Part shown: positions 8,482 to 61,016 of the stretch, in pieces
How positions within the stretch are numbered: the first letter of the stretch is position 1
How the letters are laid out: the number at the start of each line of letters is the position of its first letter
Source of the DNA: Leptogorgia sarmentosa
Lineage: Eukaryota
Length of the DNA: 64,000 nucleotides
Direction of reading: 5' to 3'
Assembly: GCA_964658305.1 (NCBI GenBank)
Contig: OZ210885.1
Location: 6,510,001 to 6,574,000 of the forward strand
The notes under the pieces: generated by a model
Seen by the model: only the letters and a program-made list of their open reading frames with translations
Database searches by the model: none
What the model was told of the DNA's origin: nothing
Made by a program: the position numbers and the translations under genes

Positions 8482-8685
8482 AATGGAGAAGAATACAGGT
8501 TCTATCTTGAGGGCAATATCTTCGTGAGATTGTCGTGTTCAATTGGTTATCATGTGTACATAAGTGTAGCATGATGAAAGCCATGTATAATAAGTTAAGT
8601 CTCGTCTACAGAATTTTTTTGTACAAATACATTCATTTACATTTTCATTCGAATTTCAGCAAGTGCGATCCAGTGCATGTGCTGA

Positions 8686-10006: not shown

Positions 10007-10169
10007 ACTAATTGACATGTTGAGTGAATGTTGAAAAATTAGGTTAATTACTTCAGTCAAGTGTTCTGGATTTAATTACCTTACTGGTCTTTAAGTGAAA
10101 GAGAATTAACATTTAGTTGCGATTTGATTACCCATACAAAATTGAAAATAAATAATGGTTGATTTTTGT

Positions 10170-10310
10170 TCCAGTTAGGGTTCAGTTGGTTAGGGTCAGT
10201 TTTAGGGTTGGGGTTAGAACTATGGTCAGTATTATGGTACGCTTATGGTCACTATTATGGTTAGGGTTAACTTAAGTTAGGGTTAGGGCAAGTGTTTGAG
10301 TTAGGATTAT
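10170..10310 (+). repeat. Degenerate TTAGGG-rich tract
   Basis: Several GTTAGGG/TTAGGGTT units interspersed with TATGGTCA units. Confidence 0.6.
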
Positions 10311-10419
10311 GGTCACTACTGTTGTACAATGATTGTGCTATGTTGTTGTAAAGGTCAATTATTCTTTTTAATATACAGTCACCTATAGACTATTGCAAAT
10401 CCAGAATCAAGGCAGTAGC

Positions 10420-10530
10420 TAGGGCCATGTCGCAATGTTTCCGCGTAGCCATGTTGCCAAGTAGCCACGTGGCCACGCAGCCACGTAGTCATGTAGCTGC
10501 GTAAACATGTCGCGACGTAGCCACGTAGCC
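10420..10530. repeat. 9-bp subterminal tandem repeats (GTAGCCACG-like) of the Merlin element
   Basis: About 10 degenerate copies next to the right TIR; reverse-complement copies at 6968-6990. Confidence 0.75.
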
Positions 10531-13500: not shown

Positions 13501-13824
13501 ATGGAAAGCATTTATCCAGACAGCAAGTACCATTGAGGTTGAGATATGCCATGACCATCCACAAGTCACAGGGGCAGACATTAACAAAAGCTGTTGTCGA
13601 TTTGGGCAAAGAAGAAAAAGTTGCAGGATGTACCTTCGTAGCTACGTCCCGGGTAAGATCGATTCATGATATTGTGTTTGAACCAATGACATTTGATCGT
13701 TTAAAGGCAATAGGCAAGAGCAAAGGTATGAAACAAAGATTGGAAGCTGAAGAGTGTCTAAAAGTGTTGGCTGAAAAAACTGTGGAGAGACTTAGTGAAC
13801 GATAAGTGCATGATTATTATATCA

Positions 13825-20124: not shown

Positions 20125-23100
20125 CAGGGCCGTCGCGACTGGGGGGGGGTGTGGGGGGTGTGACACCCCCCTGAAAAAACGTTTTCGGCAAATGAAAAAC
20201 AATAGGTACTCGAGGAGTGCGTAAGGATTTGCGATTTTGTTAACAATTATGTTGTCACTGCTTGAAGAGAAAAGAAAAACTCAATTTGTAGAAATATTGA
20301 AGATATTTTAGAGTTTTTTTAAAGCAACGTTTGGATCAAAACAACAAACGCACAACAAACTTGTTTTTTATGTTTCTACATTCCGCAACAAGCAATTACA
20401 TGTCCAATGAATACGAATGAAAAATGGAACAATACAGTTCTTAAATTGGAAACACCGCTTTGTTTTTATTTTATGACTCCGCGCTTTGAGTTGAACGAAT
20501 TCGTCTTTCAGTACCTTCCATTTGTATTACTACCACAAGGCAGCCATATATTTCTTCGTTTAACCCAAAGTAAGTGGTACAATGCTTAGTCGTTGGTGTA
20601 TTCTACGAAAATGAGCGGTGTTTTTCCCCGAAAGTTTGCGAATATAAACGAAGAACTATCTATAAACTTACAAAAACCGACGTGTTACTCAGTATTTATC
20701 TTAATAACAAACCCTAATGACATAAGGATTGTGTTTGCTTACGCAAGCAAATTCTTAATAATAGGAGGCTATATATAAAACATCAAGTTAAAGCGAAATA
20801 TTGCTTATTCTAAAAAGAATTGATATCATACAGTTTTAAATTCCCAATTTAGAAGCAGCAATGCAGCATCATAAATTTTACTGCTTACATAAAGTAACCC
20901 TCTTTACCGCTGACCGACCTGTTTTAAATAATGTGATAATTGTGTAAAAATTATCACAATTTTGTAATTTGCATTCACTGATTTGCATTAGTCAATCACG
21001 CGTGAATCTTTTTTGATTTTTGAAAGCAGTATAAAAGTGTAAAAACAGTAAAATGAGTGGCATTTCAGCTTCAAGAAAAAGGCATAAAATTAAATGTTTA
21101 TTGTGTCAAAGAACGTTCGACGACGACTACAGAGTGGAACACAATAAAAAATACCATCCACTGTACAAAAAGGAAAATAAACACGTCCCGTACGAGGTAT
21201 TTGGGGCGGCAAAAAACCCATTTGAAGCAGCTAAAAGGAAGCAAAGCCTGCAGGTATATATATAGATATAGTACTTGTTTTTTGCCATTATATTTATTAA
21301 ATTTTTACCTAAGGCTAGGGGAGAATCATGCGATTTTTTTCACATCTTGGTTTCTATTTTTGGTCATTAATGATTTTTCTGAAGCCTGTAACGTGTACGT
21401 GATTTAAATCAGTGAAAAACAGTCTGAGGTAAGGCAACACCGAACACATATGCTCGTTCTTTTTTAATATAGAAATAATATTTATCGTATATTCTTGCGA
21501 TGTATGGATGGAATCTGTAAGAGCATGTAAAAACTCATTGGCTATTGCAATTGTTCTTATCTCTCTAAGGAGGAAGAAAGCATAGTTAACCAGCCAGTCT
21601 CAGAGACAGAGAAAGAACCAAGGCAACCAGTATCTTTGCCCTCGTTCATAGAATGTGAACAGGCATCTTCACAATTTCAAGAGACGGTTGTTTTGGAGGG
21701 AAGTTGTGACAATAAGGTAAACTGTTCCTAATGCAAAATTGGCATTTTTTTCATTTTTATTTATTTCGAGTACTTACTTTATGTCGCATTTTTTAAGAAC
21801 GAAAAATCAGAAGACACCTGGCTAACCTGTGCAGGCGCACTTGCGTATCTACTCGGCGATTTAGAGGAAGCAAATGCTTTATCGCTGGAGTGCAAAACAT
21901 CAACCTGCCTCAACATAAACGAATTCCTTTCACGAAGTGTTACTATAGCCAACAAAATCCAAGCAAATGCCACCATACTTTTAAACGTATCAGAAAATGC
22001 TTTGCAACGATACGAAGAGCAGGCTGGTGACGTGATTGAAACAGAAGAATGTACAACATTGCCAAGTAGAGATCCTGGCCAAAGATGTCATAAATTGAGT
22101 GCCAATCAGAAAAAATACCTTATTACGCAAGGCCCACAACAACCAAAACTGGCTACGTTTCCGCCCAAGCAAAACATCCCAGCTTCAAAACAAAGACAGT
22201 TTAGCGCGAGCTGGTATGAGGAATATGCGCACCTTGAATATAGCGTATCGAAAGATGCAGCGTTTTGTTTTATCTGCTCCTTGTTCCATAAAGAAGGACA
22301 GGATCCTGCTTGGTGTGAAACCGGTGTTTCAGCATGGGAGAAGATGAAAAGCAGAGGAACAGCAAAAAAAGGAAAACTTGCAGAGCATTTCAGTTCGGAA
22401 AGTCACAAAGAGGCTTTAAGCGCATATGTTAGCTTTTGTTACCCTTTAGGCCACGTAGATGTGATGCTTGACAAAGCTGTACGAAATGCCAAAATTCAAG
22501 AAGCAAAAGACAAACAGGAAAATAAGGAAGTTATCAAAATCTTGCTTGACATTGTCAGAACACTGGCCCATCAAAACATGGCATTTCGAGGTGATGGAAA
22601 GGAAGAGGATGGGAACTTTTGTCAGATCGTAAGACTGGTTTCAAGGCACTGTCCTTTGCTTCAAAGGTGGATAGAAAGCAAGCGATCACGCTCATATCAT
22701 GTCACATACATGTCGCCAGAATCACAGAATGAAATGATTCAGTTACTAGCAGAAGATGTCCGACGTCAAGTAGTGAAGGAAATAAAGGATGCGAAGATGT
22801 TTGGTGTTTCTGCAGATACTACCCCTGATCTGTCTAGAAAAGATCAGTTGGCAGTGGTGTGTAGATATGTAAACGAAGACGGTGACGCAAAAGAACGACT
22901 TCTGTGCATAAAGAGCACTACATCCAAGACAGGCGCCGGAACTGCTGATGTAATCATCACAGCATTGAACAGTCATGCGTTGAACACAAACGAGCTTTGT
23001 TTCCAGTCATATGATTTCACTGCCTCAATGTCTGGTCAATTCAATGGCGCTCAACAAAAGCTTCAGGAGAAATTGAATCAAAACATTCCATACGTTCCTT

Positions 23101-25127
23101 GTCAAGGTCACAGAACAAATACAGTTGTGGAACACAGCTGCGACGCAAGTGTTATCGTGAAAGAAATGTTCAATATCCTCGAAAGTTTATACGTATTTTT
23201 TTCGAGCAGTACTAAACGGTAGGATCCGTAACTAATAATTACTAAATTAATAAATCCTTGTCATTTTTATTTCTGTAATTTATGTTTAGTTCTGCTTGTG
23301 AATAAAACTTAATAAAATGGAAACATTTCTTAAAGTGTCTCCTAAATAATTCTACTTTTGATCTAATATTTATCCTCATCTTAGGCAAGGAGAGTTGGAA
23401 GAAAACATCAAGGGAGTGGAGAATGCCTTAAAGCTGAGAAATCTGTCAAAGACAAGGTGGACAAATCGAGCAGAATCTATACGTGCAGTTTGGACAAGCT
23501 ACAAATTGATAATAAACGCTTTATCCGCCATTCAGAATTCTGGTGACTTTGACAACACCACGAAAGTGGCAGCGAAAGGCCTTTATGATAAAATGATGTC
23601 AATAGATTTCATTTTGTCGATAATGTTTATGAAGAATCTCATGCCATGGATGATGAAATTCATGCCGGTATTGCGTATGCAGGCAAGCTAGGCGGTGATC
23701 CAGAACGACCAGAAGCAGAATTCAATCGTAAACATCGCGTGAGAAGACCACCAAGAAGGATCGATGACAACCCCGACTCGCAAGCGACGCTAACAATGAT
23801 GCAGTTTTACAGGCGTGAATTCAAATCCGTGCTCGAAACGCAAATTGTTCAGTTGGGAGAAAATTTAATTCAGTGCTTTGAGGCGGTTAAGCCACTTGCA
23901 ACTGTGTTGCAACCACCACTAAAGCATCCGGACTTTAAGGATGTCCAAGAACTTGTTAGCCTCTTTCCCTCAAACATTCCAGTGGATCCTTTTGTTTTGT
24001 ATGCAGAATTTGGCAACTTTGTAAGTCATGCTCTGACAGACGAACGTCAGACAAAAGAGAAGCTGGATACCGTCGCTAAAGTGGCCAAACTCTCTGAAGA
24101 TTTCAAATCAGCTTTCCCACTTACCAACAAAGCGTACAGACTTCTCTTGACGGCGCCTGTGACAGTGGCCAAGGATGAGCGAACATTCAGCAGGCTCAAA
24201 CTAATCAAAACATACCTAAGAACGTCAATGAAGGAACAACGATTGGAATCGCTGATGCTTATTTCTTGCGAAAAAGATATTACAAATACCATTGACATTG
24301 ATGCAATCGCAGCCAAATGGGTGGAACTTAAATCTCGAAGAATCACATTTAGATGAGCAAACTTAATTGACTTATAGTAGGTCCGGATAAATTTTACTTC
24401 AGATCTGTTCAATAGTAGGTTATCACAAATTCATAGCCGAAAATAACACTAATCACTGTGCACTAACCACCAATAAAACATTCATTGACATTGTAGTTAG
24501 AAACATTACGCGAAAAGACAAAAGAAGAACATAACTTTGTATATAGGGTGATTTTTTAAGTGCGTCTTTTCTTACAATATATTCCAAATGGCCAAACCCA
24601 ACTGTCAAATATGAAATAACAGTACTTTACCTTTAGTTAAAATACTAACATTATAACAAGTTAAATGCAATGTTATTAATTCTTCTTGACTTATAAGTCC
24701 ACCAAAACTCTCGTAATATATGTCAACGTTAAGATATGTTGTGCTGTGAAATTATAGCAGAAATTAAATGGCCTAACTACTATGCGCTCGGACCGGGCAG
24801 TCCCGGGTGCTTTCAAAGTCAATGATTCAAATGGGAAAACCCAGTTTAATTAATATATCATGCTAAACAACAAATTTAAATGTGTTAAAATATTGTTTTC
24901 TGACCGTCAGAAGTCTCCAAAATCATCCCTTCAAGTAAAAAAATGGCATTTCACAGACCGCAGATTTAAAAATTTTCTGGGGGAGCATGCCCCTAAACAC
25001 CTCGATATTCCTCACGCAAACGGCGCTTGGATCCAGCCTTCGACAGGAGAACCACACCCAAACCACATTTTGTCGGCACATTTTATACTCACACCCCCCC
25101 TGCTTAAACTTCCTCGCTACGGCCCTG
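20125..25127 (+). mobile_element. Full-length hAT transposon (Tip100/ZMYM1-like)
   Basis: TIRs CAGGGCCGTCGCGA and revcomp CAGGGCCGTAGCGA; perfect 8-bp TSD TTGCTAAT (20117-20124, 25128-25135). Confidence 0.95.
21053..24356 (+). pseudogene. hAT transposase (TTF-type zinc finger, DUF4371-like, hAT dimerisation domain), multi-exon, frameshift near 23645
   Basis: LEYSVSKDAAFCFIC, AFRGD, SADTTPD, QSYD, CQGHRTN, SKTRW, ERTFSRLKLIKTYLRTSM. Confidence 0.88.
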
Positions 25128-28929: not shown

Positions 28930-30197
28930 TGGAAATTGATGACATTGATTACCTTGATTCGTCTGAGACAGAAAGTGAAAAGGAAGAAATTCAAACCAGT
29001 AAATCAAGTACAACTTCAAAGCGAAAGCGTGTCGGTCAAAACCAATCTTTTGTAGACAGTTGGTTGACGAACAAAGATTTTAAGGCCTGGCTTTGTAAAC
29101 GAGTGGGATTTTGTAAACGATTTTTCAACACTGAACCCCACAAGATACTGTCGCCGGGTCAAACTCGCTGGCTATAATTAGAAGCCTGTGTCAACCGTAT
29201 CCTGGAACAATATCAGGCTTTACAGCATCACTTCACCCTGGTGGCCAATGAAGATCCAACACACAGCAACGATTGTGTCCTTAGGTCACTTAATAATAAA
29301 TTCACTTTGGCTCACCTCTTAAGCTATCAATTGCAAAGGTTGAATGCTTTCAACTTGCTTTACCAAAGTGAAAGTCCATGTCTGCATTACCTCAAAACTG
29401 AAGTAGAAAGCCTATTGAAATCAATTGCAAGTGATTTCATGGATATCCAGTATGTTAAAAGCACAGATGCTAAAGCTATTGATCCCAGTGATGTCCAACA
29501 TCATGTACCATCAAGACATGTCTACATTGGTGTGGCAGCAACTGCTACCATGCAGGAGATAAAGGATGGTGCAAAACCAGAAGATGTTGCGAAGTTTCAA
29601 CAAGATTGTAAGAACTTCCTTATTGAAGCTATTAATCAGATTAAACGAAGATTTGATGTTGATTCTGATATATTTTGCCTTCTTGAATGCATTTTACCTG
29701 GAAATGCCAGCGCCTTGTTGCCACCTTCCCTATCTCAAGTGTTGACCAAGTTTCCCTTTTTGAAGGAGATTGATCCCACCAAACTCGATTTGGAATGGAG
29801 AGCACATTCGTTTGAGGATAAAATTGCCCCTAATCTTCAATGGACTGAATACTGGTTGTTGATTAAGAATGCAAAGTATCCATCAGGGGAGCCAAGATAT
29901 CCAATGCTTTTAAAATTTATTGAAATTCTTGCATCCTATCCATTCTCGAATGCTGCAGTTGAGAGGGTTTTTAGCATGCTGAAGCTTGTGAAGACCGACC
30001 ACCATTCATCTCTCAAAGCATCTTGTCTTGTGTCTTTGCTGCAGTGCAAGATGGCAATGAAAAACAATAATCTCAAGTCTGCTAGCCTTAAACCTAGTTC
30101 TTTGGCTTTAAAGCTTGCAACAAAACTTAAATCCAGTGCAACAGATGAAGAAGCACAAAAGTTGAAGAAAACATTTCTTGAACAATCATTCTCATGA
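28930..30197 (+). pseudogene. hAT transposase remnant with a large internal deletion
   Basis: SFVDSWL N-terminus is joined to HKILSPGQTRWL*LEACVNRILEQY; C-terminal PFSNAAVERVFS dimerisation motif. Confidence 0.8.
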
Positions 30198-35663: not shown

Positions 35664-38420
35664 TCAATGAAAGCAATTAACAAGTGCACATACTGCCTTA
35701 TGATCTGAGAAATATGTTTCTAAAATGTGCAAGTTAGCTTGTGATTCTGGTAAATTTGTGAAAATATGATCTATTAATGTCTGATTATCTGTAGTGACAC
35801 TGCACACCAACTGTCTATAGTTATTGCCATTGGTAAAGAAATTATATAAAGGCCTTCGATTGGCTTCATCCAACCAATTTATGTTAAAATCACCTATGAA
35901 AATGTTGAACTGTGAAGTACGTAACATAAGAACATCATTCAATGCATTTAATAGTTGCTGAACAGGAATTCTGGGTGATCGATATATACCTATGATGCTA
36001 ACATGTGGAAGAATCATGACTTTCATAATAGTTATTTCAATTCCATTTACATTATGACAATGTGGATATCCAGGTAAGAATTCAACTCTGCTGAAAACAG
36101 CCATGCCTCCAAAAGGTCTGGAAGTTGAAGAGTGACTGTCATTTCTGAACAAGGTGTAACCATCAATAGCATACATACTATCATCATCAGAGTTCATAAT
36201 TCGTGTTTCAGAAAATATATTGATGTCAGTGTTTGTGAAGTTGAGATCATGTCGAAGAACATCATTAATATGTTTGTGCAATGAACAGGTATTCAGGTAG
36301 CACAACTTGAATGAGACTTGATCTGTCTTATAAATAGGAATAACACTAAGTTTCAGTGCACATTCATTTCTCAAGAATTGCATATTCTAAGTTGTCCTAA
36401 ATATATACCTATCCATTACTGGGGGAAGTTGAAATGCACCATATGCAACTATGCTTACACCCCCAAAATCATTTTTACTCCGCTTGATGTCTTTTAATCT
36501 ATTATTGGTCTGAACATTAAACATTGTACTACCAACCATGGATATCTCATTCAAAAATTTTAGCTTTAAACCACCAAGCTGACACCTCAAAGTGTTTAGT
36601 CTGCTTGAGTCAAGCGCTTTATAATTTTTTAAGGACTGAGATGCTGGTATAACAAATGCATTATGAATTGTGTTGCCTTCAATGTTAAAAGCTGCTTTAC
36701 CAGTTGGTGTAAGCAGTAAAATTTTGACTTGATGAAAATCATCACTGGCTCTAGTATTATAATATTTCAACGCTGCTTGGTATAAACATTTAGTGAGATG
36801 TGATTTCCCAACTCCAGTTCCTCCACTCAGAAAACAATAGAAAGGATTGTCAGAAGTTTTGATTAGATGCAAGACATGATAAAAAATTCTTTTTGTTTGT
36901 TTGTTGAGCTTTTGTACCATAGTTCTATAAACATCATCCTGTTCTTCATGTAATATTAGTTGTTCAGTATTGGATGCTGTTGAAGGAATTCCAAGATCAC
37001 CAGAAAAATCATAGTTTGGATTTAATTGTGGATGAAGGTCTAGTGTACCTTCAGACTCATCTTGACGCTCAACATTTTGTGTTCCTGGGGCAACTAAGTC
37101 ATAGTTGTCAGCGTTATCTTGCATATTATCAAGCTGTTCTTGGATATCATCAAGGTCTTCACTACAAATAGCATACTGTTTCATTTGTTGATCAATTGTA
37201 GTTTTCACTTTTAAAAAGTGCTCTTGATAGGAAGAATAGTTTTTTATTAAATCAGTTGTTTCATTTCTCTATGATGTAAATAGCATGATCAGTTTACGGT
37301 AGTGTTTCTCAGAATCAACTTCCTTGTTGAAACATACACTTCGAATAATCCTAGCTTTAGATCTTTTTATTTTTTAGTTCATATTCTCTTTCCTCCTTGT
37401 CGTCATCATTATCATCATTATCATCCATATTTGTCACCACAGGATAGCTTATCACTATCTAGTTCATTAGTTGGTTTGAATATGGCTTACCAGAACAGTC
37501 ATACCAGGCAGCCCAATCAGCAAGAGATAAATTTTCAAGTTTGGCTGGTCGTTTTGTATAATGCTTTATCAAACCAGATGCATAAACCTCATTGGAATTA
37601 TCTTCCATATGATTTATTTATTTCAATGGCTTTAGTAACTGAACTCTTTCCTCAGGAGGTGAAGTGTTTACAAAGACTACCTGGCAAGATGATTTTCTCA
37701 TAGGAAGTTGCAGTACAATGTAGACTGCTTCTTGTGCACTTATTTCAACATTGTTCAAAAACTTGTTTCCAATGTCTCTTACTTGTTGCTTAATATTGGA
37801 GTTTCCTGCTCTTGCTTCTTCACAAGCAGATCTTAAAAGCTTGCTCATACCTTTTTGTTCCTTGGATATATACGATACAATGTATAGTGCACATGCATAA
37901 ACATCAAGTACAAATTGAATGTCCATGTTAGCTTGCCATGCACTAAGACATGCTGCATTATAATTGTTGATCCTTAATTCATTTGGTTGTCTTTTTAAGA
38001 ACATAGTTGGTGTCTTCAGACTGGATCGATTAGCTAGCAAATACTTTTGATCTGTCAGTTTCAAGTTTATCAATAACTGATCAAATGTAATGTCCTCACC
38101 CTCTTTCATATCATTCAGATGTTGTTTAATAAACTTCCAATCATTTTTGTGTTATTCCAGTTCATTATTATTCATATCAGTATCTAATGGATATAGAATT
38201 GTTGTTGACTTCATTGGTGGTTGTGGGTAATTAAAGCGGCATACAGTTTTTGATTTCTTTCGACAAGTGTGAGAATGGCTGTCTATTTACAAGTGCAAGT
38301 AACTCTGGATTTTCAACTGGTTTTTCACATGTGATTACTTTATCAATGAATGAAACAACATCATAGTCAAAATCTATAGCAAACCTAGGAGCATTTTCTA
38401 ACCATATTAACATAGTAACA
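35664..38420 (-). pseudogene. Helentron Rep-PIF1-APE endonuclease remnant
   Basis: Rep: AWQANMDIQFVLD, YIVSYISK, EISAQEA. Helicase: GGTGVGKS, EISMVG, FQLPPV. APE: LNTCSLHKH, FSET, GDFN, IDHIF, YFSDH. Multiple deletions and frameshifts. Confidence 0.9.
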
Positions 38421-38886: not shown

Positions 38887-40876
38887 AGTAATATACTGTA
38901 AACTTGGAACTTTTTTCAGTAGCCTATATTCATATTTAGTTTTTTTCCTGATGTGAAATGTAAATACTATAACGTTTTTAACATTTTAATTAAACACATT
39001 TTGTTTGTCTTTTGTATAAGGTTGGGTGGTTGATTTCATTTTACTGCAAACTTTCCAAAAAAATTATTAAGCAATTTGTCATCAGTAGCAAAAGCCAAAA
39101 TGTAGCTTGTTGAAAAGGAATCCATGCAACAATGCAAGTATAAATTATTTTAAAATTTCAATGCGACGATCGAATTTTGTCAATTATGTTTGTAGATTTA
39201 TATATTAATAACTAAACGATATATTACAAAACATTAAAACCTAGAACTATACTCAAACATATTTCCTAAAACAGCATGCTGTCCTATCAAATATGTGATG
39301 TAGATAAAACTCTTAAAGAGGGCTGCAACATCCTCTATGTATTTTGTGGTTTTAATCTCCATGCAAATAATGTAAGACAAACTGTAACTCGCTTTCTCGG
39401 CAATTATAAAAGCAGAATAATTTTTTTAAAAAGTCAGTCAGTTAGCAGTAGTCTTTCACAGAACGGTACATAGCAAATTTAATATGTGGCGAGCACACAA
39501 TATTTAGCTCTTTCTGCAAGAAAACCTTGAGGAAGGCAATACTGTGTAGAAGGATGGCCAAACGGGAAAAGCTGCACAAACAGCCGCCAACATGCAGAAG
39601 GTGTTTCAGTACATCGTTTTCCTATGAAAGACAAAGAGCGACTGAACAAATGGACCGCTTTTTTACAAAGACATCGCCCAGAATTTATTCCTCGACAGTA
39701 CTCTGTGCTGTGTTCAATGCACTTTGCCAAATCAGCATTTACAATAAACGTGGAGGTAGCAAAAACGCTCAATATGAGAAGACAGTTACGCTCTGATGCT
39801 GTTCCAACAGTAGATTCGCTAGAAAGCATGTCCACACCAAGTGATTTGAGTAATTGGGATCGCAGGATGGTATGTTTAAAATAATACAAATAAAAACAAA
39901 TTATTCTTATTATATACATTTTCTTTCACACAACCATTTGTTACAAGAATTTCACTTGTCATACTCAACAGGCATTGCGAGAAGTATCTTTAATTATTGA
40001 TCCTGTTGTTGAAACCATTGAAGATTGATCCAACAAAATGATGATGTGCAGGACGCGACAGAAAGTGATACAAGTGAAGTTCCAAATGATACACGAGAAA
40101 CATGCAGTAAGTGCGACGTTCTTGCAAAGAAAGTTCTCCAGCTCCAGAAGAAAATCAATTGGCTAAAACAATCCAACCAGAGGCTAAATGACAGTCTAAA
40201 TTTGGTAGGTATAAATTGATTATATATATATTAATTGGTTAACAGTAATAATTAGCGTCTTCTAACAGGACTTATTGTTAGAACTGTTGCTTACATGACG
40301 GATTGCACTCATTGTAAATTTACACTACTATTCCTACTCATATGTTCAAGGAAAGTGACGAGTCAGATGCTGAGAGTGACGATAATCAATGGTGAACAAC
40401 ATGAGTTGCACGATTTGGATGACGTCGAGGAGATCATTAGAGATCCAGGGGAACATACAGATATTATGTTACAAAAGATACATACATCGAGGATTCCCAG
40501 TCTTGAAACACAGTAAGGTGAGTGGTTAGAGCACATACTGCACTGGAGTTAAAAAACAAAAGCCAACTTATGGAAATATACACCCGATTCTCTTTAGTAT
40601 GGAACCTGTACCTTACCATGTGATGAGCCGAAATTTATTGTGTTTTATGGCATGCTCGTATCGCTGTTCAGCATGATTTGCTTCAATTGCAAGAGTCCAA
40701 ATCCTGAAGTAGATGTCAAGAGGACTGGTTCAATGGCTGTTGTAGCACAATGTTGTTATGAGTGTGTGTGGCAGGAATTTTCAATGGAACAGCCAACCAA
40801 ACATACTAGGAAAATTTGCCGCTGGAAACCTTATGACAAGTTTTGTTATTCTGATGTCAGGTGTCAGCATAAGCAA

Positions 40877-41131
40877 CAATCCTGGTCAAAACATTGGCGA
40901 CACATACTATTTTTCTATGGGGTTTAGAGCAAAATAAAGAACCCTCCCCCTTTCCCCCACCAATCAATGCTGGATGGTGTTGCATAACATGTTTAATGCA
41001 TTTGGCATAGACTCAACATTGTTTTGGGGGCGGAGGGGGTATTTTGACAAGAAAAATTAGACGTTTTATAGTCGAAAACCTCAAAATGGACAACTTTATT
41101 AGAGTGTAGTTAATGGTTTTGGCCAGGATTG
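40877..41131. repeat. Left 255-bp terminal direct repeat with its own TIRs
   Basis: Starts CAATCCTGGTCAAAAC and ends GTTTTGGCCAGGATTG. Confidence 0.95.
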
Positions 41132-41307
41132 TCTGAAAATGATCAAAGTTCCGGCATGCATAAATCGTTGGTTTTACCGCGACTTCTTTCAGGCTTTGGG
41201 AGAAGAAGTTGGTTAAGAACTTTTGGAGTGAATACAATGACGTCACATATTAATTATCTAATTAAATACATCATAAATATAACAAATTTGTAGTACTGAG
41301 ATTAATA

Positions 41308-42391
41308 ATGTGTGGCAAGAGACTTTCTCCAGAAAAGGTTGCATATTTATGGCTTTTGCTGAACGAAAACAAGTGGAATGCGACCGAAATATCTAGGAAA
41401 TTAGAGATATCTCGTTCTTGCATATATAAGTATAAAAAGCGTGGTATATCCGATGCTGACAACAAAAAAATTCACAAAGGAGGGAGACCGAGAAAGCTAA
41501 ATAAAAGAGACATGAGAAAGTTACTAAGGACCCTAAAATTATTGCAAGCACGGGAAGGAACTTTCACATCCAAGAGACTTGCTAAGGAAGCGGGGCTAAA
41601 TCTAAAAAACGTCAGTATGCGAACGGTTCGAAGGGCAATGAACGAAGCCGGTTATAAGTATTTGCAAGCAAGAAAGAAAGGGATACTTAAGAAGACTGAT
41701 CTTAAAAAGAGACTTTCGTTTGCCAAAAAAATGAAAAATGAGCATTCAAATCACGTGTGGCAGAAAGAGAAACTTTTTTCTGGACAGTGTTAGCTTTGCA
41801 TATAAAAGAAATCCTTTTGATCAAGGCAGTTCGCCAAGGGGATGAATTTGGAGAAAGCCATGCGAAGGACTCGACTATGGATGTACAGCAAAAGGAAAGA
41901 AGGAAGGAAGTGGCGGAAAGTTAGTGAAGCTAATGGTTGCCATCTCATTTAGGAAAGGCGTTATAGACTGTGAACAGTATGATAAAATGAGCGGCGATTA
42001 CTTCAAAGGGTACATAAGTCGTAAATTTCCAGAATTATTCCAGAAAGCTGATAAATTCCCCTCCAAACTTTGGATTCAAGATGGATGCCCTTGTCAAAAT
42101 AGTAATGCAGCGAAAATGGCAATGAGTGAATCAGACGCAGATTTGTTATCTATACCACCTAGAAGTCCAGATATAAATCCAATAGAAAATCTATTTCATC
42201 TTGTAAGAAGGGAACTAGACAGACAAGCGATAGATGGAACTATAACGCAGGAAACCTACGAAGAATTTGCGACCAGAGTTATAAACACCTTTAAATCTTT
42301 CCCTATAGAGCGTGTTGATAATATTATAGAATCAATGGATAAACGAATGAGTATGATTATAAGTAGAGGCGGTCAAAGAATTAAATACTAA
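41308..42391 (+). pseudogene. Tc1/mariner (IS630-Tc1) DD34E transposase with one frameshift (~41770) and one stop (~41843)
   Basis: HTH and GGRPRKL; RTVRR; FFLDSVSF; WIQDGCPCQ; SPDINPIEN, with 34 residues between D and E. Confidence 0.9.
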
Positions 42392-43012
42392 TTGTGCGCT
42401 TTTACATATTTTTGTAATAATATAAAGTTATTATGAACTGGGCGTCTAACATATATTAATAATAATCTGTCATTTAGTTACAATGAACATTCATACAACA
42501 CGCTCATATTATTGCATAATTAATTTATTGACGGTGCACCAAAACGTGCGGAAGAAAACGTTCAATATTGTCCTAAACTGTGAAAGTACCAAATGTCAAT
42601 AAAACTGTTCTAAAAGTATTTACAATGCGTATCATAGTGATATATTTTTGGTACGATATTCTGAAATCGTTTGCAAAATCTCAACGGTGCACCATTTTTG
42701 GCACAAAGCAATGCTATATAATTACTGTAGATATATTCTTATGACTGTACGATGCACCAATGGTGCACCGTTGTATGTGTGCGTGATTTTCAGCCGTTGC
42801 ATTATTATTATAATGAGCTTTCGGTATTTTACGGATTGAAACAATATGTTAGTCTTCTAAACTCCTTATAGCATACAAAGTTAAGTGTTCGCATAAAATA
42901 AGCACCATGCATGCAGTAATGCGATATCTATAGATATAGTATAACGAAATTAATAAAATTATTCTTTCATAGGCACTTGCTACATTCACCTAATACTGTC
43001 CTATGCCTAGTT

Positions 43013-44290
43013 TTAATTTTGTTCAATGCACACTAAACATGCAAAGCAACGAGGGCAGGGTTTTATGTCTATCTGTTCATCTTCTGATATTTGATGCGTG
43101 AGTGAGAATACATTCCAACGTACAGACATCATCTCAGTCTCACGCTCATCGACTGTACAACCTGTGATGTACGCCAATCTATACTTGCTGGTCGCAAATA
43201 CCGGCGTATCAGCTTCAAATAAAATATCTTCGGCAAAGTGAGTTTTAGGCGCCGGAAAGTGGACGGGTTCGCCTTCGAGTAATAAGAGCAGGTCATGCCA
43301 AGGAATAATTTTATCATTCCAACGGAAGTTGTTTAAAAATATACACTCAGCTTGCTGGACACCTACCCAAGCAAAAGTGCCGGAAGCAGGATTAGTAAAG
43401 GTGTGATAGATTGCTTTTAAGGGTTTAAGTAGAAACGTTTTACCGCAATTAGCAGGACCAATGAGCATGATGTTTCGATATTTTCCCCGTCCTTTTTGCA
43501 ACAACGTATAGATCGCATTGGCAAATTCTCGTGCTCCTATACCATTCGCTGTTAGAACTTCTTTAGCGCATTCTAACCAACGACCTTCACAGTTCCCAGC
43601 GCAATCGCCTGCTTTAGCTTCTTATAACAATTGCATGCGTGTCTTCTTGCTTCTTTCCAAGTTATCCTTTGCGTTGCACATGTCCCAGGTTGTTTTTATG
43701 ATATGCGCAATAACTTTTGGTTGCCTGTTCATAACAAATTCCGCGAGATCGGATTTTCCTTCATCCTTCTGCTCCCGGGCCAGAGCAAGCAATTCCGTAC
43801 GAGTCTTGATCGACCTAGCTTCAATAATTTCGGACACCTGTAAAGATGTCATCCTCTTTTTTCTTCGACTTTCTTGATGTCGTCTCCTCGCCCTCGCAGT
43901 CAGACTCATCTCTTGCAGTGGCTGTGGCAACACTAGCGGAATCTGTTCTTGGTGGCTCGCCATTCGTCAAGTCAGGATGACCAGGACTCTGTAAATACTC
44001 TGTGTCAGATTTAGTGACGTATTCCCATGCGCTGAAATAGTTGTGATGTACTGATGAAAAATGCACCGAAGCATCGAAATGATCCAACAGAAACCGTTTA
44101 ATTTTTAGCCATCTTTGCTTTCGTTCCAGTTTGATTGCGACATGATAATGCTTGCCACCATTCTCATGATCTTCGAGACAACAACACCACTGTATAACAT
44201 TATTGTCCTTGCTAAACGCAAGGACAATAATAAATAGGTTATTAGATAAACCTGCCTTGTATCGCGCGCTCGAAGACCGTCTGTCGCCAT
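43013..44290 (-). pseudogene. HUH-endonuclease Rep fused to SF3 helicase (CRESS-virus/parvovirus NS1-like), with frameshifts and a stop
   Basis: Motif I YLITY, motif II GGKHYHVAI (44142-44150), motif III YVTK (44010-44021), Walker A GPANCGKT (43436-43459), Walker B IFLNNF, motif C VFATS. Confidence 0.85.
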
Positions 44291-44501
44291 TGCATGAAAT
44301 TTTTCACTTATATTTACTAACACATGTAACCAACTATAATATATCTATTTGGCGTGAATTCAAACATCACTAATCAGGAATAGGAAATAAAGTATTATTC
44401 AACCCATTCTTTTAATTGTCGTGAATTGACAAACGTGACACTAGCGTATCCGATCAGTGTAACTATTCTTTCAATTTGTTTTAAATAATTAAATACATAG
44501 A

Positions 44502-44756
44502 CAATCCTGGTCAAAACATTGGCGACACATACTATTTTTCTATGGGGTTTAGAGCAAAATAAAGAACCCTCCCCCTTTCCCCCACCAATCGATGTTGGAT
44601 GGTGTTGCATAACATGTTTAATGCATTTGGCCTAGACTCAACATTGTTTTGGGGGCGGAGGGGGTATTTTGACAAGAAAAATTAGACGTTTTATAGTCGA
44701 AAACCTCAAAATGGACAACTTTATTAGAGTGTAGTTAGTGGTTTTGGCCAGGATTG
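44502..44756. repeat. Right 255-bp terminal direct repeat with its own TIRs
   Basis: 251/255 identical to 40877-41131 by manual comparison. Confidence 0.95.
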
Positions 44757-45269
44757 AAGGTGTTCCTATTATTCAAGCATTTAGGCTTTTGTACAATTAC
44801 TGGCAGGACATATCATAAACATCAGAACAGGTTCCTGCCGCCCTCTGATAATCTATTGGAAAAACTATCAAAATGCTCTCATGGAACAAGTGAAGAATGT
44901 TAAGGATGCAACATGGTCTGGTGATGGTCGTTTTGATTTGATGGGGCACAGTGCTAAATATGGCACAGAAACCAGTCCAACTGAAATACTTTGATATTAT
45001 ATTTTCAGATTATGTTAATGAAATAAAAAATGTTGTGTTGTCCACTTTTGAGGAAACCTTGGAAAAGGTAATGACTGAATACCAGGAGAATATTCCAGAA
45101 GCATTGAACAGGAGGTTTCCAGATTGGCTCTCCAAAACTGAAGCAATCAAACGCCAGTTAGAAAGAAAGCAACTTCCCTCAACTCCATTGTTCCCTTCAT
45201 GTAAGTTTTGGTACATGCATGCAAACATGTATAGATGGATAAATAGTGCATTCTAAAAATTACAAAGTC

Positions 45270-47839: not shown

Positions 47840-48799
47840 TAAGCATCATCAAGTACTTGATGAGTTGATACTGCATGATGTAATTAGTGAATCACCCCCC
47901 GGACAAATTTCAAAATGGTTTTATTAATTAAATCTTTTTTCTTTTCAATTCCCTAAGTTTAGGGTTGGGGTTATTTTTCTAGTTTGCTTTAAATTTTCCT
48001 TAAATAAATAGGTTAAATACCTTCGTAATAGCGACACTAATGACCGAATGCGTTTTTCCTATTAAATAAGGTATAGAGTGTATGTTTTCCGAAAGAGTGT
48101 ATTAGGTAGGTATAAATGTATTGCAAGTTGCTTCGAGAAGAATTGTACAGTGTGTGCATGTTTGACTGTAGATAATTTTGGCAGGTGATCCCCATTTTCG
48201 TTCTGTTGACCATGAGAAAGTTCCTGTTATCCCATTTGAGTAAGGAGAGTTATTTTGTCAGTGTGACATATTAAGTGCGAATTCTTAGAAAATTTGAAGA
48301 CTCAATTAAATTTGAATTTTTTCAAGTGCGAAGGTATGAGCATTTGCTACTGAGTTAGAGAATCCTACACTCTAATGGCAGATTTCTGTACATGCAGATT
48401 AATGAAGTGCTCGTTTAGCCTTTTCAAATATTGACGTCAGTGATGACTTTCCAAAAGTCCTTTTCCCTATTTTAGGACCAATTGTTGTTTTTGACATTTG
48501 AGTGTGGTAGCCAATTCAATAACTTCGGCCAAATGTGAATTGAGAGTTCACAATAAATAAACAGTTCACAATCCCGTTTCCCCCCAAACAACCAGAAACT
48601 AGACCTTATGGTCGATTAAATGACAGCGCTGAGCTCGGTTTGTAATAAGCCAAGGGCCCAACCAATGTTTGTGCCAGGGCCCGCCCCTACTCGAAACTGT
48701 TGTTTAGTGTACCAAGACTCCCAACAAACACTTCAACACACTCAGAATCTATTTATTGATGACAATATCTCTACATTTATAATCTAGCATCAGAGCAAA

Positions 48800-49552
48800 A
48801 AAATTGTTCCAGAATGTAAAAGTAAACAACCACTCATCGAGAAAGACAAACAGCTTGATGACAATATCATCAACAAAGCACAGAAAATCCTGGGAAAGCA
48901 GTTTCCAATGGTCGAGGGTTGGCAAGATACACTTCTCGCTCAAACATTCTCCACTGCTGTTGAAGAGTCTATGCAAATTCATTTTACTGGCCAAAACCAT
49001 TGGGTTTGTTCCACATCTTTTGGTCGATATATACGGGTGTACGACAGCGCAGGTAGCACACAATTAACATCATCCATGGAGGTGCAACTGACAGATTGCT
49101 ACAAGTTGTTAATCAGTGCAAACAAGCTTGAAGTAGAACTTCCACCAGTTCAAGTTCAATTGGGAGCAGTGGATTGTGGTTCATTTGCAATAGCATTTGT
49201 GTACAACCTTGCTGCTGGAAATGACCCATCCAACATGCATTACGACCAATGTAAGAGGCGAGAACATTTGACAAAATGTTTCGAAAGCGAGTCCTTCACT
49301 CCATTTCCCACACAACCGAAGTCTAAAGCTGTCCGATTTCGAAAAGAGTTTGGGTATTGTGAGATTGATTTGTTTTCCCATTGTCTCATGCCAGAGTCAT
49401 TGGATGATATGATCGAGTGTGACTTGTGCGGGAAATGGTTTCACATCAAGTGCAAGAATCTTTCAAAGTTTCCAGAGGAAGATGACAAATGGCTTTGTAA
49501 CGCATGTCAACCCCCAAGCCCAAAGCGATCGAAACATCGAACATATCAGTAA
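48800..49552 (+). pseudogene. ULP1-like cysteine protease plus PHD finger (transposon cargo fragment)
   Basis: NHWV...VYDS...VQLGAVDCGSFAIA triad; MIECDLCGKWFHIKC...WLCNAC. A transposon-like end with GGGGGTCC repeats follows at 49712-49759. Confidence 0.75.
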
Positions 49553-53219: not shown

Positions 53220-55329
53220 GATAATAATAATAATAATAATAATAGTTTATTCACAATTAATCACTATACAAGGAAAAATACATTACTATACAATACAAAC
53301 AAATACGCGACAAATTGTGAAAGGAGGTGGAAGAGGTTATCCCTTTCTAGTCCACCTCCGGAACACTAAGCTAATAAAACATTAACAATGTTGCAATATG
53401 TATAATTAACATATTTTAATTAATTTAAAAAACATGTTTCTTTAGATACTTCTTAAAAGTTCCTAAGTTATCTGCTTCTGCAATATGTTTTGGCAAACTG
53501 TTCCACAAGTTTATAATACGTATAAAAAAAGAGTGTTTATAGCTGTTCAATTTGGCAGGTCTTGTTTTTAGCTTAAAACAATGGTTAGATCTTAATGGCC
53601 TAAATTGGTCGGCAAATATGAAAAGTTCTTGGGGATCTAAACCATTCAGCTTATTAATCGTCTTATAGCATTCACATAGAGATGAGAAAAGCCTTCTTTT
53701 TTCCAATGTTGGCCATTTCAATCTGTTCAACCGTTCATCATATGGCATATCTTTAGCATCGCTACCAAGTGCAAGTCTTGAAGCACGCCGTTGTACTTTT
53801 TCTAGGATGTCAATGTCCTTCTTTAGGTGAGGGGACCACACTGGCGAGCAATACTCAAGTATTGGTCTAACTAAGCTTTTGTACAGTTTAGAAAATAAAT
53901 CTGAATTCTTAGACCCAACAGTCCGTTTAATGAATCCAAGAAGACTGTTAGCTTTATTTGCGCATTTAGTGGCTTGTAAGCTCCATGACAAGTTTGATGT
54001 AATATAAATGCCAAGATCTTTGACCTCAGATACTGTTTTAAGGATGCTGCCACATAATTTATATTCAGGGATTGATTTATCATTCTTTTTTGAGATTTGC
54101 ATCACTTCACATTTTTTAGTGTTAAAGTCTAGTTGTTAGTGTTAAAGTCTAGTGCTCCATTGCTCTAGAGAATATAAATCTTCCTGTAGTACATGCGTGT
54201 CTACATCGGTGTTCTGTAGTACTTTATACACTTTCATGTCATCAGCAAATAATTTGCACTGCGATGTTAAGTTCCGTGTTATGTCATTGATGTAAATAAT
54301 GAATAACACAGGGCCTAAAACCGTCCCCTGCGTTACGCCAGAGAGTACTGGTGTCCAGGATGAATAATTTCCCCGTACTACCACACGCTGTTGGCGATTC
54401 GTCAAAAAGCTTCTCACCCATGATAATAGTGGGTCTCTAATTCCGTATGAATGGAGCTTTAATAATAGACGTTCGTGCGGGACCGAATCAAACGCCTTGG
54501 AAAAATCCAAGAACACAACGTCCGTTGATAGACCACTATTTCTATTGTTTGACCAATCATGAAAGACTGTTAGTAGTTGTGATAGGCAAGACTTGCCTTT
54601 CATAAAGCCAAATTGATCTGGAATAAATATATTCTTAGTTATCCAGAATTCTACGAGATGTTGCCTGACGATTTTCTCACACACCTTACAGGGATATGAA
54701 GTCAGTGACACAGGACGGTAATTATCGCGTTTATCTTTTACACCCTTTTTGTGCAAGGGGATAATATCAGCTTCCTTCCAACTGTCCGGTATCTTGCCTG
54801 ATGAAAATGACAAATTAAAGATCATGCAGAGTGATGCGGCTAATGAGTCTGCACAATTCTTTAAAATCAGTGGGTGGATGCCGTCAGCACCTGGAGACTT
54901 GCGAGGATTTAATTCTTTAAGCAACTGCGCAACTTCATTAGTTGTACAGTGGAGAGAACCGAGGCTATCATCTGCAATAACCTGTGCAAACGTTGGAATA
55001 TTCTCGGTGTTTTCACGCGTAAAAACTGAAGCGAAAAATTTATTCATGCACTCAGAAATATCACTTTCATCGGTTAACGTGTTTCCATTGTCCAATTTAA
55101 TAACTGTTAAGTCATTAGAGCCTCCGCGTTTTGAATTGACATAATTCCAAAAGAGTTTGTGTTTCTTCTTATCGTGCATATTATTTGCCAGGTCCTTCAA
55201 GTAGTCCCAACGGGCCTCGTTACATTTCCTTTTGAGCATGTTGTTTATGCTCTTATATTTCGACCATAAATTGGCATCGTCTCTTGCTTTAGCTTTCTTA
55301 TATAAACGCTTCTTTTTTCTAACGCACGC
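53220..55329 (-). mobile_element. 5'-truncated CR1-type LINE with (ATT)n tail
   Basis: RT motifs KSPGADG, NYRPVSLTS, DFSKAFDSV, GVTQGTVLGP, FADDMK; C-terminus VRPILEY...WSP; 3' UTR hairpin GGAGGTGGA...TCCACCTCC. A 20-bp duplication near 54120-54150 breaks the frame. Confidence 0.93.
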
Positions 55330-57251: not shown

Positions 57252-60200
57252 ATGGATGTATTGGAAAAAGAAAACCAAATAACAAAGTGCGGAACAACTT
57301 GGTGCGCAGCTGAAAATTGTTTCAGCAACAAACTATCAGATCCAAATCTATCTTTTTTCCGTTTTCCGAAAAACGAAGATCGGTAAGTTGACGAATGGCG
57401 TACTCGCATCGTTTGTTTTAATACTTTTCATTACAATATCACAGATTAAGAGTCCTCTTAATCTGTGGCAATATGCTATAACCATATATACTTTGACAGC
57501 TATTTAACTAATTAAATGGAAATTTACAGGTTAACAAAGTAGTAGCTTGTTTATCAATTTTCAAAATTTTATTATTTTAGATCAAAACTATGGGCAGTTA
57601 ATAGCAGCAGATATGATTTAGTAAGCAAGGACTCAGTTTATTTGTACAATAATTGCAAATTATGTGCAAAACACTTTTCTGAGTCCTGCTTTCGAAACTA
57701 TAAAAATAACAGGCTTAAGGATATGGTAGTGCCCACAATATTCTCACAAAATCTAGGAGTAAAAAGAAGACTTTTTGACAGTGGTACACCAGGTAATTGT
57801 TCTTAGTAACACAAAATTTGAATACTATGGTCATATAATACCATATCTGAGCATATCAATTGCAGATTGTGAAATACCAACCAAGAAAGTGTCATTAGCA
57901 GGACGACCCAGGATCTTATTTTCACCAAATTACAATGAAGGTATCAAAAGAATGAGGTCAATTTATTGTTTAACTCATAAATAATAAAGTCACATTCTTG
58001 TTGTTGTTGTTGTTGTTGTATTATACTTGGGTGTTGTGTGGATGCACACTAAGAGTAATACCACAATCAATAATGTCAACATACCCTACTTTTTACATTA
58101 GATCCATCGCCAGCAGTATATTGCACTGCAAACACCGACACGACTTCCAGCACAGAAACAGATCCTGCAAATTCAGGTAATACACATTTTAGAAAGGTTT
58201 GTCACAATTACATAGACAGACAATTATTCCCACAATCAATAATGTCAACATACCCTGCTTTTTACATTAGATCCATCACCAGTAGTATATTGCACTGCAA
58301 ACACCGACACGACTTCCAGCACAGAAACAGATCCTGCAAATTCAGGTAATACACATTTTAGAAAGGTTTGTCACAATTACACAGACAGACAATTATTCCC
58401 ACAATCAATAAAGTCAACATACCCTACTTTTTACATTAGATCCATCGCCAGTAGTATATTGCACTGCAAACACCGACACGACTTCCAGCACAGAAACAGA
58501 TCCTGCAAATTCAGGTAATACACATTTTAGAAAGGTTTGTCACAATTACACAGACAGACAATTATTCCCACAATCAATAATGTCAACATACCCTACTTTT
58601 TACATTAGATCCATCGCCAGTAGTATATTGCACTGCAAACACCGACACGACTTCCAGCACAGAAACAGATCCTGCAAATTCAGGTAATACACATTTTAGA
58701 AAGGTTTGTCACAACCACACAGACAGACAATTATTCCCACAATCAATAATGTCAACATACCCTACTTTTTACATTAGATCCATCGCCAGGAGTAAAACAA
58801 ACATGGCTAAACATGCTCTGAAAGTGAGTTTTCAAATACATGAAACACAAATCAATTTATCATTCATACAACATTGCCATGCAAGATCTAAAGTGACAAC
58901 AAACACACCAACAAAGAAGAAATTGCGGGCAATCATCAACAAAAAGGATCAACAAATTCATCGCCTAAAACAAAGAGTCAACTGTAAGAAGTCAAGTAAG
59001 AAATCGAAACAAGAAGCTTTACAGATATTGGAAACAATACTACCCGGCAAAATCTGTGATTTCGTCAAGTCACAAGTTGAGCTACACTCAAACAAATCTA
59101 AGAAAGGAAACAGATATAGCAGTGAAACTAAGGCCTTTTCACTTTCTGTTTATCACATGAGTGGAAAGGCATATAAAGTGATATCAAGCCTCTTCTGTCT
59201 GCCATCAAAGTCGACATTACTCAAGTGGATATCAAGAATACCAAGTTGCCCAGGTCTTACAACTTATGCGATGAATACAATAGCACATAAGGTGAACACT
59301 TTGAGTACTGCAGGAAAACAATGTGTAATCTCATTTGATGAAATTTCCTTGAAGAAAAATTTGTCTTACGAGTCAAATACCGACGAGCTGGTTGGCCTCG
59401 AGGATTATGGCGATGGCAACAGATCTGATTCCTTGGCAACATCAGCCATAGTCTTCATGGCACGTGGCATAATAGATAACTGGAAGCAACCCCTTGCATA
59501 CTACCTGGTGAACGAGGCATGTGACAGCAGCATTGTTAAAGAAAAGCTCTTTGGAATTATAGAGAAAGTAGAAAGCATTGGCCTGAATGTCGTGGCAATC
59601 ATATCAGACATTGGGTCCAATTTCCAAAAGTTTGTCAAAGAGATGGGCATTACACCCGAGAATCCATTTTTTACCTACGGCAAAAAGAAGATCGTATTCC
59701 TTTTTGATACGCCACATATTGTGAAAGCTATCAGAAACAATTTGATTAAATATGACTTTCATTTTGGTACGAAGTTTGCATCATGGAAGGATATTGAATC
59801 ATTTTATCGGATGGATACACAAAATGCAATCCGATGTTGCCCAAAGCTGACAAGACAGCACATATCTCCAAATAACTTTGAGAGAATGAAAGTTAAATTT
59901 GCTACGCAAGTATTGAGTCACACTGTTTCAGCTGGCTTAATGATGGCAGTGAGTGGTGGCTTACTTCCAGCAACTGCAGCAGGAACTGCTGAATTCACCT
60001 CGAAAATTGATGAAATTTTTGATTGTTTGAACAGTTCAACATTTAAGAACTCCAAGGAACTGAATAGACCCATCACAGCTGAATCCAACCATTGTGAATT
60101 CATGAAAAATGCCTCCTTATTTGTTAAACAAATTAGAGTCAAAGATCGGGAAACTGGGAAAGATGTTACATCCACATTGAAGTGTTTACGAGCCTTGCAA

Positions 60201-61016
60201 ATAACTTTGAATGGAACAGTCCTTATATGGAACACCATTCAGCCAGTGGCTAAGTTTTTATGCACGAGAAGACTCAATCAGGATCCGTTGGAAAACTTCT
60301 TCGGGTGCATCAGACAGCAAGGTGGCAACTGTGATACGCCTACCCCATTACAATTTAAGAGAGCATTCAGGAAGTTGTTTTTTGACAACTATTTGCTGCA
60401 TTCAAATGGTAACTGCAGTGCAGATGTAGATGCCATCTTGGTTGGTTACAAGACAACTGGAAAGAATGTCCCGGATGACATTGAAGAGGAACACGAAGTA
60501 TCCCAACCATTCCAGGTTAATGAGTCGGATTATCAGCTCCCGGCAGCCAAGCAAAACCTTTTCATGGAAAATGCTATCACTTATGTTACTGGTTACCTAT
60601 TGAAAAAAAGTTTACAACAGCATCAATGCCAAATTTGTTCTAAAGAACTGGTAAACAATGACCAACTGGACAGTTCGAGCAAACTGTTTACCTATTTCAA
60701 GGCATATGACAACAACAAAGGCCTATTTGGAGGTCTCAAAGTACCCACAGCAGACTTCGTGGAATACATTCAGAAAATCGAGGATCTATTCATGCAAAAC
60801 TTTCCACGTCTTATGACAAAGAATGGAATTGGCAAGCATCTGGTCGATCTACTACCTAGATTCTTTGCTCCCTGCTGTGACCAATTTCCCAGCGAATACC
60901 TCGTTAGACTGTTCGTCCGAATGCGGATATACTACGCAGTCAAATTTGGTAACCGAGACATAAGAAATACAAAGAGGGGAAAGAACAGGAAATTCTTTAA
61001 AGTCACGCACCTATAA
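57252..61016 (+). CDS. P-element/THAP9-like transposase; THAP exons 57252-57382 and 57581-57792, exon 57866-57940, four repeated 75-nt exons, catalytic ORF to 61016
   Basis: THAP motifs CAAENC...FRFP...W...CAKHF...VPTIF; SFDEISL, IISDIG, DTPHIVK, QDPLENFFG. The in-frame junction to the long ORF is unresolved. Confidence 0.88.
57440..57467. mobile_element. 28-bp P-element remnant/excision footprint
   Basis: CACAGATTAAGAG-TC-CTCTTAATCTGTG is the first 13 bp of both TIRs of the host element, flanked by ACAATAT/GCAATAT. Confidence 0.85.
58061..58789 (+). repeat. 169-bp tandem repeat, ~4.3 copies, each unit an intron plus a 75-nt exon
   Basis: TTACATTAG acceptors before 58102, 58271, 58440, 58609 and 58778; CAG/GTAAT donors. 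Confidence 0.92.

Follow-up and report, generated by a model that had tools for sequence, protein, structure and literature searches.

A Tc1-type transposon with long terminal direct repeats and a Rep-type replicase gene in Leptogorgia sarmentosa

The element and its insertion site

The window (64,000 nucleotides of Leptogorgia sarmentosa contig OZ210885.1, analysed as a whole and numbered from its first letter) contains a 3.88-kb Tc1-type DNA transposon. Its transposase and Rep genes are convergent and sit between two long direct repeats. The features are as follows.

39531 to 44941, plus strand: host, a decayed THAP-domain transposon remnant (THAP E value 1e-16), outside the element
40875 to 40876, plus strand: left target-site duplication, AA (TA in relatives)
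40877 to 41131, plus strand: left long terminal direct repeat, with its own 16-bp terminal inverted repeats (TIRs) at 40877-40892 and 41116-41131
41132 to 41134, plus strand: inner flank on the transposase side, TCT, with the end-adjacent T kept
41308 to 42391, plus strand: Tc1-type DD34E transposase, HTH_Tnp_Tc3_2 and DDE_3 domains
42392 to 43012, no strand assigned: stretch separating the convergent genes, where GGTGCACC cores recur at 42533, 42686 and 42762
43013 to 44290, minus strand: Rep gene, a fusion of HUH endonuclease (YLITY, HYH, YxxK) and SF3 helicase (GPANCGKT)
44499 to 44501, plus strand: inner flank on the Rep side, AGA
44502 to 44756, plus strand: right long terminal direct repeat, matching the left at 251/255 positions
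44757 to 44758, plus strand: right target-site duplication, AA

The two 255-bp repeats are in direct orientation (BLASTN E value 6e-127) and differ at four pairs of positions, 40966/44591, 40970/44595, 41007/44632 and 41113/44738. Each starts with CAATCCTGGTCAAAAC and ends with GTTTTGGCCAGGATTG, and the resulting 16-bp TIRs are complementary at 15 of 16 positions. BLASTN found no third copy of the repeat in the window. The inner flanks of this copy mirror each other over 3 bp only, and AA lies outside both ends. On re-measurement the repeats with their four differences and terminal ends, the TCT/AGA inner flanks and the AA outer flanks all proved to be exactly as the original prediction had given them. 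An internal inverted repeat of a type common across families is present in the left repeat (about 40942-40974 with 41014-41039), and the right repeat, taken as a single strand, has a predicted hairpin (z = -3.0).

The element interrupts the transposase frame of its host, and the frame is restored when the element and one AA are removed. By its motifs the host may be Kolobok-type or Kolobok-like; a homologue search with a 52-residue fragment of it found no homologue. In contigs from three of four public runs the flanks at 40874 and 44757 are joined, 2 letters being ambiguous, and a loose end matching this join is present in the fourth; the host element is multicopy, so these empty sites may be paralogues. 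Together the restored frame and the flank-joining contigs indicate one insertion with a 2-bp duplication, and AA is a true target-site duplication. The target context, AGC-AA-GGT, is similar to the (A/G)GC-TA preferred by relatives. We note that the right outer flank lacks a T next to the end; this copy may therefore have been unable to re-excise, judging by the cleavage data in the available passages of PMC4344528. In a 653-letter contig of run X1 (window 41116-41479) the core and the last 16-bp TIR follow 294 letters that do not resemble the repeat; it may represent a divergent repeat or a rearranged copy.

The window as a whole is a dense nest of transposon remnants. A 404-codon open frame at 7324-8538 (minus strand) has an IS1595/Merlin-type DDE domain, and an 811-codon open frame at 58581-61016 (plus strand) has a P-element-type transposase. 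Two broken Helitron-like regions with Pif1 helicase matches lie at 5716-13805 (plus strand) and 35664-38151 (minus strand); hAT-type fragments, a non-LTR reverse transcriptase and a PHD-finger ORF are found at 21732-24356, 29178-30197, 53425-55329 and 48788-49552.

The transposase begins with a helix-turn-helix DNA-binding region (HTH_Tnp_Tc3_2, E value 2e-9). The second D and the E are separated by 34 residues in 117 of 120 transposase homologues, the pattern being unmatched in the other three, and the ORF in the window has the same spacing. Its best relative of solved structure is SB100X (Sleeping Beauty, 7e-14). A search of IMG/VR gave three weak, distant matches. In the window copy the gene is interrupted twice, by a frameshift near 41770 and by a stop near 41845.

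The minus-strand Rep gene (HUH plus SF3) was absent from the original prediction. In the window it is split over three ORFs by a deletion near 44230, a frameshift near 43860 and a stop at 43622-43624; the nicking and helicase motifs of Rep are retained. A model of the close relative P0002 (pLDDT 86.6) matches the folds of AAV2 Rep68 (7.5e-13), papillomavirus E1 and parvovirus NS1 at 11-18% identity, and Rep is predicted to fold like the parvovirus and papillomavirus initiators. A profile search with Rep gave no credible sequence match to a solved structure. No Rep relative was found in IMG/VR, and the single locus obtained from GTDB, which lies in a MAG, has fragments of Rep and lacks a transposase. 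The family comprises 891 clusters at 50% identity scoring E values up to 1e-30, counted by Rep similarity whether or not they lie within such elements. Named relatives come from corals and a sea cucumber. Among the look-alikes of P0002, one cluster is mostly cnidarian and in another Perkinsozoa is the commonest recorded taxon (5 members of known phylum), so the distribution of relatives may extend beyond animals. No capsid gene lies in the core of the window element or in six other cores, and those six have no third long ORF apart from short overlapping frames. The window element has no reverse transcriptase or gag ORF and its ends are CA..TG, not TG..CA as in LTR retrotransposons; there were no Rfam matches.

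Relatives and inheritance of the two genes

A metagenome scan confirmed 131 Rep loci, of which the best 80 were kept; one from GTDB brought the set to 81. A related transposase was found at 45 of these loci, on the opposite strand to Rep in every case. It lies beside Rep at 26 of the 28 loci with at least 1.6 kb of downstream sequence and at 38 of the 44 loci of at least 3 kb. Trees were built from the 34 loci where each gene is represented by 200 residues or more, less four near-duplicates and plus the window, giving 31 elements. The Rep and transposase trees have 14 of 28 splits in common (shuffled mean 0.2, maximum 3); the other 14 disagree, and shared hosts have perhaps inflated the agreement. 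Distances of the two proteins are also correlated (Mantel rho 0.65, best permutation 0.40). In the two of six pairs whose synonymous sites are unsaturated, dN/dS is 0.16-0.32 for both genes; both are under purifying selection in these two close pairs. The Tc1 transposase and Rep are thus one inherited unit, a pair that recurs in dozens of related elements, and the whole, from repeat through Tc1 and Rep to repeat, is almost certainly a single co-inherited element. At one locus (L061:962-4184) Rep is uninterrupted and a terminal repeat is flanked by GA on either side, with no transposase match; the locus is possibly a Rep-only derivative.

The original prediction held that the locus was one composite-like element on a Tc1 backbone and not two MITEs. 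This is upheld by the single outer duplication and by the direct orientation of the repeats at nine of nine loci showing both inner ends. Two other full-length copies also have the duplicated repeat. L002 is a complete repeat-core-repeat element with uninterrupted ORFs, a TA duplication and 263-bp repeats identical at 263 of 263 positions. L032 is likewise complete with a TA duplication, and its older repeats align with 169 identities, 8 mismatches and 8 gap columns. Many other loci have units bounded by TIRs, about 145-275 bp long and with CAAT..CAAAA-like ends, that adjoin the genes at their 5' ends. With a matrix derived from 13 of these unit ends, 70 matches were obtained in the loci and 2 in shuffles. 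The units share an internal inverted repeat of the form C-rich arm-CAATGTTG ... CAACATTG-G-rich arm. The constant orientation argues against flip/flop, and no rolling-hairpin flip/flop of the repeats was seen at the nine loci.

Both genes are present on 45 contigs, and in 13 of them the order is permuted or the transposase lies upstream. We do not take these 13 as proof of circles, for which assembly collapse of the two repeats is an equally good explanation. One permuted element (L025:228-4789) is opened at a different MITE, which has a 32-bp perfect TIR and a 9-bp duplication, CACGGGATA, on both sides; the two halves of the MITE are in inverted orientation, and the element's one 186-bp repeat (728-913) has inner-type flanks at both ends. 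Elsewhere (L050:639-858) the mirror symmetry between the two flanks of a repeat extends over about 24 bp, far more than other families show. Four copies of Rep, with no difference between them over 347 residues, lie in one gene model of Holothuria leucospilota, and in Acropora millepora neighbouring accessions hold Rep proteins that are nearly identical; these copies, known from proteins and gene models, hint at multimers or tandem arrays.

Ends, repeats and a proposed cycle

A candidate Rep origin is the stretch between the genes, where an AT-rich spacer is surrounded by short repeats that are specific to each family and occur in both orientations. Iteron-like repeats are significant against shuffles in 14 of 26 families, the window included. 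The motif ACG(G/A)NNNAC, defined after looking, occurs 84 times against about 12 expected. Inspection by eye and by k-mers found no conserved nick-site motif, and likewise no conserved loop motif, in the repeats or between the genes, and no clear co-variation was seen between iterons and Rep residues. Replicational release from two origins, one in each repeat, is unsupported: the repeats have no nick motif and the iteron-like motifs lie in the core. The repeated motif at window positions 42528-42775 often reads CAACGG, which we take to resemble a Myb binding site, so a host factor rather than Rep could bind there.

Inner and outer ends, picked by hand with two ambiguous ends and duplicate loci left out, differ in their flanks. 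At the outer ends TA is found in 17 of 19 cases (CTA in 16); AA is an exception, the two non-TA ends being those of the window copy. The TCT/AGA inner flanks are not invariant, a point that the original prediction had put forward for checking. The 40 inner ends have GA in 27 cases, TA in 10 and others in 3, with AGA in 21, the counted ends including related families and so not being independent. The end-adjacent T (3' of the transferred strand) is retained at 39 of the 40. In mariner this T is critical for cleavage of the transferred strand and the next A matters little, and Tc1-like enzymes likely differ from mariner in cleavage, according to the passages available from Dornan et al. (PMC4344528). 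For Hsmar1 a change of TA to TG delays second-strand cleavage, as stated in the part seen of Claeys Bouuaert and Chalmers (PMC2800235). The idea that GA flanks disable the inner ends is weakened by the retained T. Inner flanks also mirror each other within an element: for 14 elements, 44 of 56 comparisons match at positions 2-5 (31.8 when shuffled across families) and 33 of 70 at positions 6-10 (20.9 when shuffled). From these patterns we infer that the inner junctions may be kept as transposase substrates. This would pay only if productive cutting takes place in a multimer, whose ends all have inner flanks.

The two repeats in the window agree at the family-variable sites 40912, 40915 and 41094, and at offset 211 both have T where contigs of four runs (two studies) have G nearly throughout (G depth 2124/2193, 207.5/211, 42.9/42.9 and 27.2/27.2). 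The left-right difference at 40970 is private to the left repeat; the other three are absent among the variants listed. The core differs from other copies at 73 letters in 8,994 (0.8%), a figure from the 16 of 20 listed pieces that lie wholly in the core, with two divergent-variant pieces and two others excluded. Had the repeats been identical at insertion, 4.1 differences would be expected, and four are seen. It is likely that they were identical at insertion and came from one template, a reading that draws on one shared site and one rate coincidence and that gene conversion could mimic. In each of the four runs the summed depth of the repeat clearly exceeds that of the core (by as much as about 35-fold in X1 and 5-fold in X7), and other insertions of the repeat in the run contigs end in TA. 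The solo 255-bp MITEs of the original prediction are thus likely abundant, on the hint of a contig depth that is not a copy number.

The evidence leans towards a cycle in which a one-repeat circle would be multiplied by Rep into multimers, from which the transposase would cut and insert repeat-core-repeat units. The circle would form when the repeats recombine or when the ends of an excised linear element anneal. Rep could then replicate it from the repeated motifs between the genes, giving head-to-tail multimers. The transposase would cut these at inner-type junctions, each unit running from a repeat's left end to the right end of the repeat that follows, and would insert the excised units at (C)TA(G). 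Solo repeats left behind, with TA on both sides, could spread as MITEs. Such a cycle would explain the identical repeats, the fixed inner flanks, the occasional tandem arrays and the existence of solos as ready MITEs. The cleavage rule used in it comes from mariner. An origin from a concatemer or dimer circle had been proposed for this locus from the outset; it gains from the presence of Rep as a plausible engine and from the retained inner T, and the circles and concatemers themselves were not observed in the contig data, which are unable to show circles.

Ordinary chromosomal cut-and-paste of the whole composite would need no free circle, if Rep nicked or over-replicated the element in place and unequal exchange gave rise to the arrays and the alike repeats. 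We consider this rather unlikely. The tandem-array hints, the failure to see a circle and the normal TA at outer ends are consistent with it, and it parallels the induced unequal crossover model described for KolobokP in the available passages of PMC9587614. It offers no reason for the retained T and mirror symmetry of the inner ends, since an inner cut in a chromosomal copy would destroy that copy; a full helicase-nuclease replicase would also exceed its need. In another route, likewise drawn for KolobokP in those passages, a Rep-amplified one-repeat circle returns by homologous recombination into a chromosomal solo, and the transposase spreads only solos and composites. A random solo would not supply a repeat agreeing with its partner at 40912, 40915 and 41094 and in the rare variant, and we find this route improbable even though landing pads are likely plentiful, given the hint from repeat depth exceeding core depth in four runs, and inner flanks are mostly non-TA.

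To the suggestion that the element is an integrated capsid-less satellite or helper-dependent small DNA virus, packaged in trans and using the Tc1 transposase as its integrase, we attach a similarly low probability. The six cores have no third long ORF, IMG/VR gave no Rep relative and terminal flip/flop is not seen, set against a Rep fold like that of parvovirus and papillomavirus initiators, a unit length of about 3.6-4.1 kb and named relatives in both corals and a sea cucumber. That the structure is a chance nest, either of two independent MITE insertions or of a Tc1 element with a captured viral fragment, is largely refuted and would be very surprising: the window is indeed dense with nested transposon remnants and the genes of this copy are broken, but there is one outer duplication, the same gene order and repeats recur across many families, and the trees are congruent.

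Comparison with known systems

By its transposase, TIRs and target the element is a Tc1 transposon. It resembles the Tc1 family (DD34E, for example Sleeping Beauty) in its DD34E transposase with an N-terminal helix-turn-helix, its TIRs and its TA target, and differs in that its two direct repeats provide four ends, where the Tc1 family has two inverted ones, and in its additional replication-type gene. Polintons/Mavericks also combine a DDE integrase with an element-encoded replication enzyme, but are 15-20 kb long with a protein-primed polymerase, capsid genes and TIRs only, whereas this element has 4 kb and two genes. Endogenous parvoviruses and CRESS viruses have the HUH-SF3 initiator in common with it, as judged from the P0002 model; the element has no capsid gene. 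IS26 moves by cointegrate chemistry, which the Tc1/mariner cleavage order would disfavour here. The pseudo-compound transposons and translocatable units of IS26 are similar in having two directly repeated mobile ends and a proposed one-end circle; they are bacterial, their IS encodes the transposase and, in the passages available from PMC9587614, they have no replicase of their own.

In layout the element works like KolobokP. The same source, as far as its available passages go, describes in KolobokP (Kojima and Bao 2022, PMC9587614) a repeat-core-repeat structure, repeats with their own short TIRs, a DDE transposase together with a nuclease as second gene, marine invertebrate hosts, and demonstrated solos and multimers, of which there are hints in the present element. 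The differences lie in the transposase and ends (Tc1 DD34E, CA..TG and a 2-bp duplication here; Kolobok DDD/E and RR..YY there), in repeat length (145-275 bp in the element family, about 450/660 bp in KolobokP) and in the second gene (an HUH/SF3 replicase here, a His-Me homing nuclease there). The geminivirus-like transposon of Tuber melanosporum also has viral-type Rep and transposase ORFs in a TIR-bounded repeat family (Liu et al. 2011, PMC3198968). In the part of that paper seen, it is one fungal family with 37-bp TIRs and a geminivirus-type Rep, with no duplication seen and no long direct repeats reported; our elements form many families in marine animals, in which Rep is parvo/papilloma-like, the convergent layout is fixed and the termini are direct repeats. 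The same passages mention the Repbase elements DENSOV_HM and PIVE. Replitrons and Helitrons are eukaryotic transposons that encode an HUH Rep (Craig 2023, PMC10288648). In both, according to the excerpts available, Rep is the transposase and there is no target duplication; the Replitron has a Y1 HUH protein without helicase, and the Helitron a Y2 protein with an SF1B (Pif1) helicase. The present Rep has a single YxxK motif and a fused SF3 helicase, and is accompanied by a separate DDE enzyme, which accounts for the ends and the 2-bp duplication of the element.

A 2026 review names KolobokP, and its available passages contain no element combining Tc1, Rep and long direct repeats (PMC13565253). 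Full-text literature searches gave no description of such a Tc1 element or of the cycle proposed for it; Repbase, Dfam, subscription journals and supplements could hold entries. Whether these are widespread, undescribed, self-replicating transposons of marine animals, made of two genes for a Tc1 integrase and a parvo/papilloma-like replicase, with direct repeats regenerated each cycle from a one-repeat circle, is in our judgement evenly balanced. If so, theirs would be a DNA-only counterpart of the LTR cycle; they would be the source from which abundant MITEs of corals arise and, lacking a capsid, would link small DNA viruses with transposons of the cut-and-paste kind. Cut-and-paste transposons increase their copy number only indirectly; one with its own replicase would amplify outside the chromosome. 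The element would also be a second, independent origin of the KolobokP-type composite-like layout, and Rep would be the obvious enzyme for the circle-and-multimer model left open there. The reading predicts that one class of short coral MITEs consists of solo terminal repeats. It also calls for caution with annotation, as many coral and echinoderm genes labelled 'parvovirus NS1-like' or 'CRESS Rep' may be transposon cargo and not endogenous viruses.
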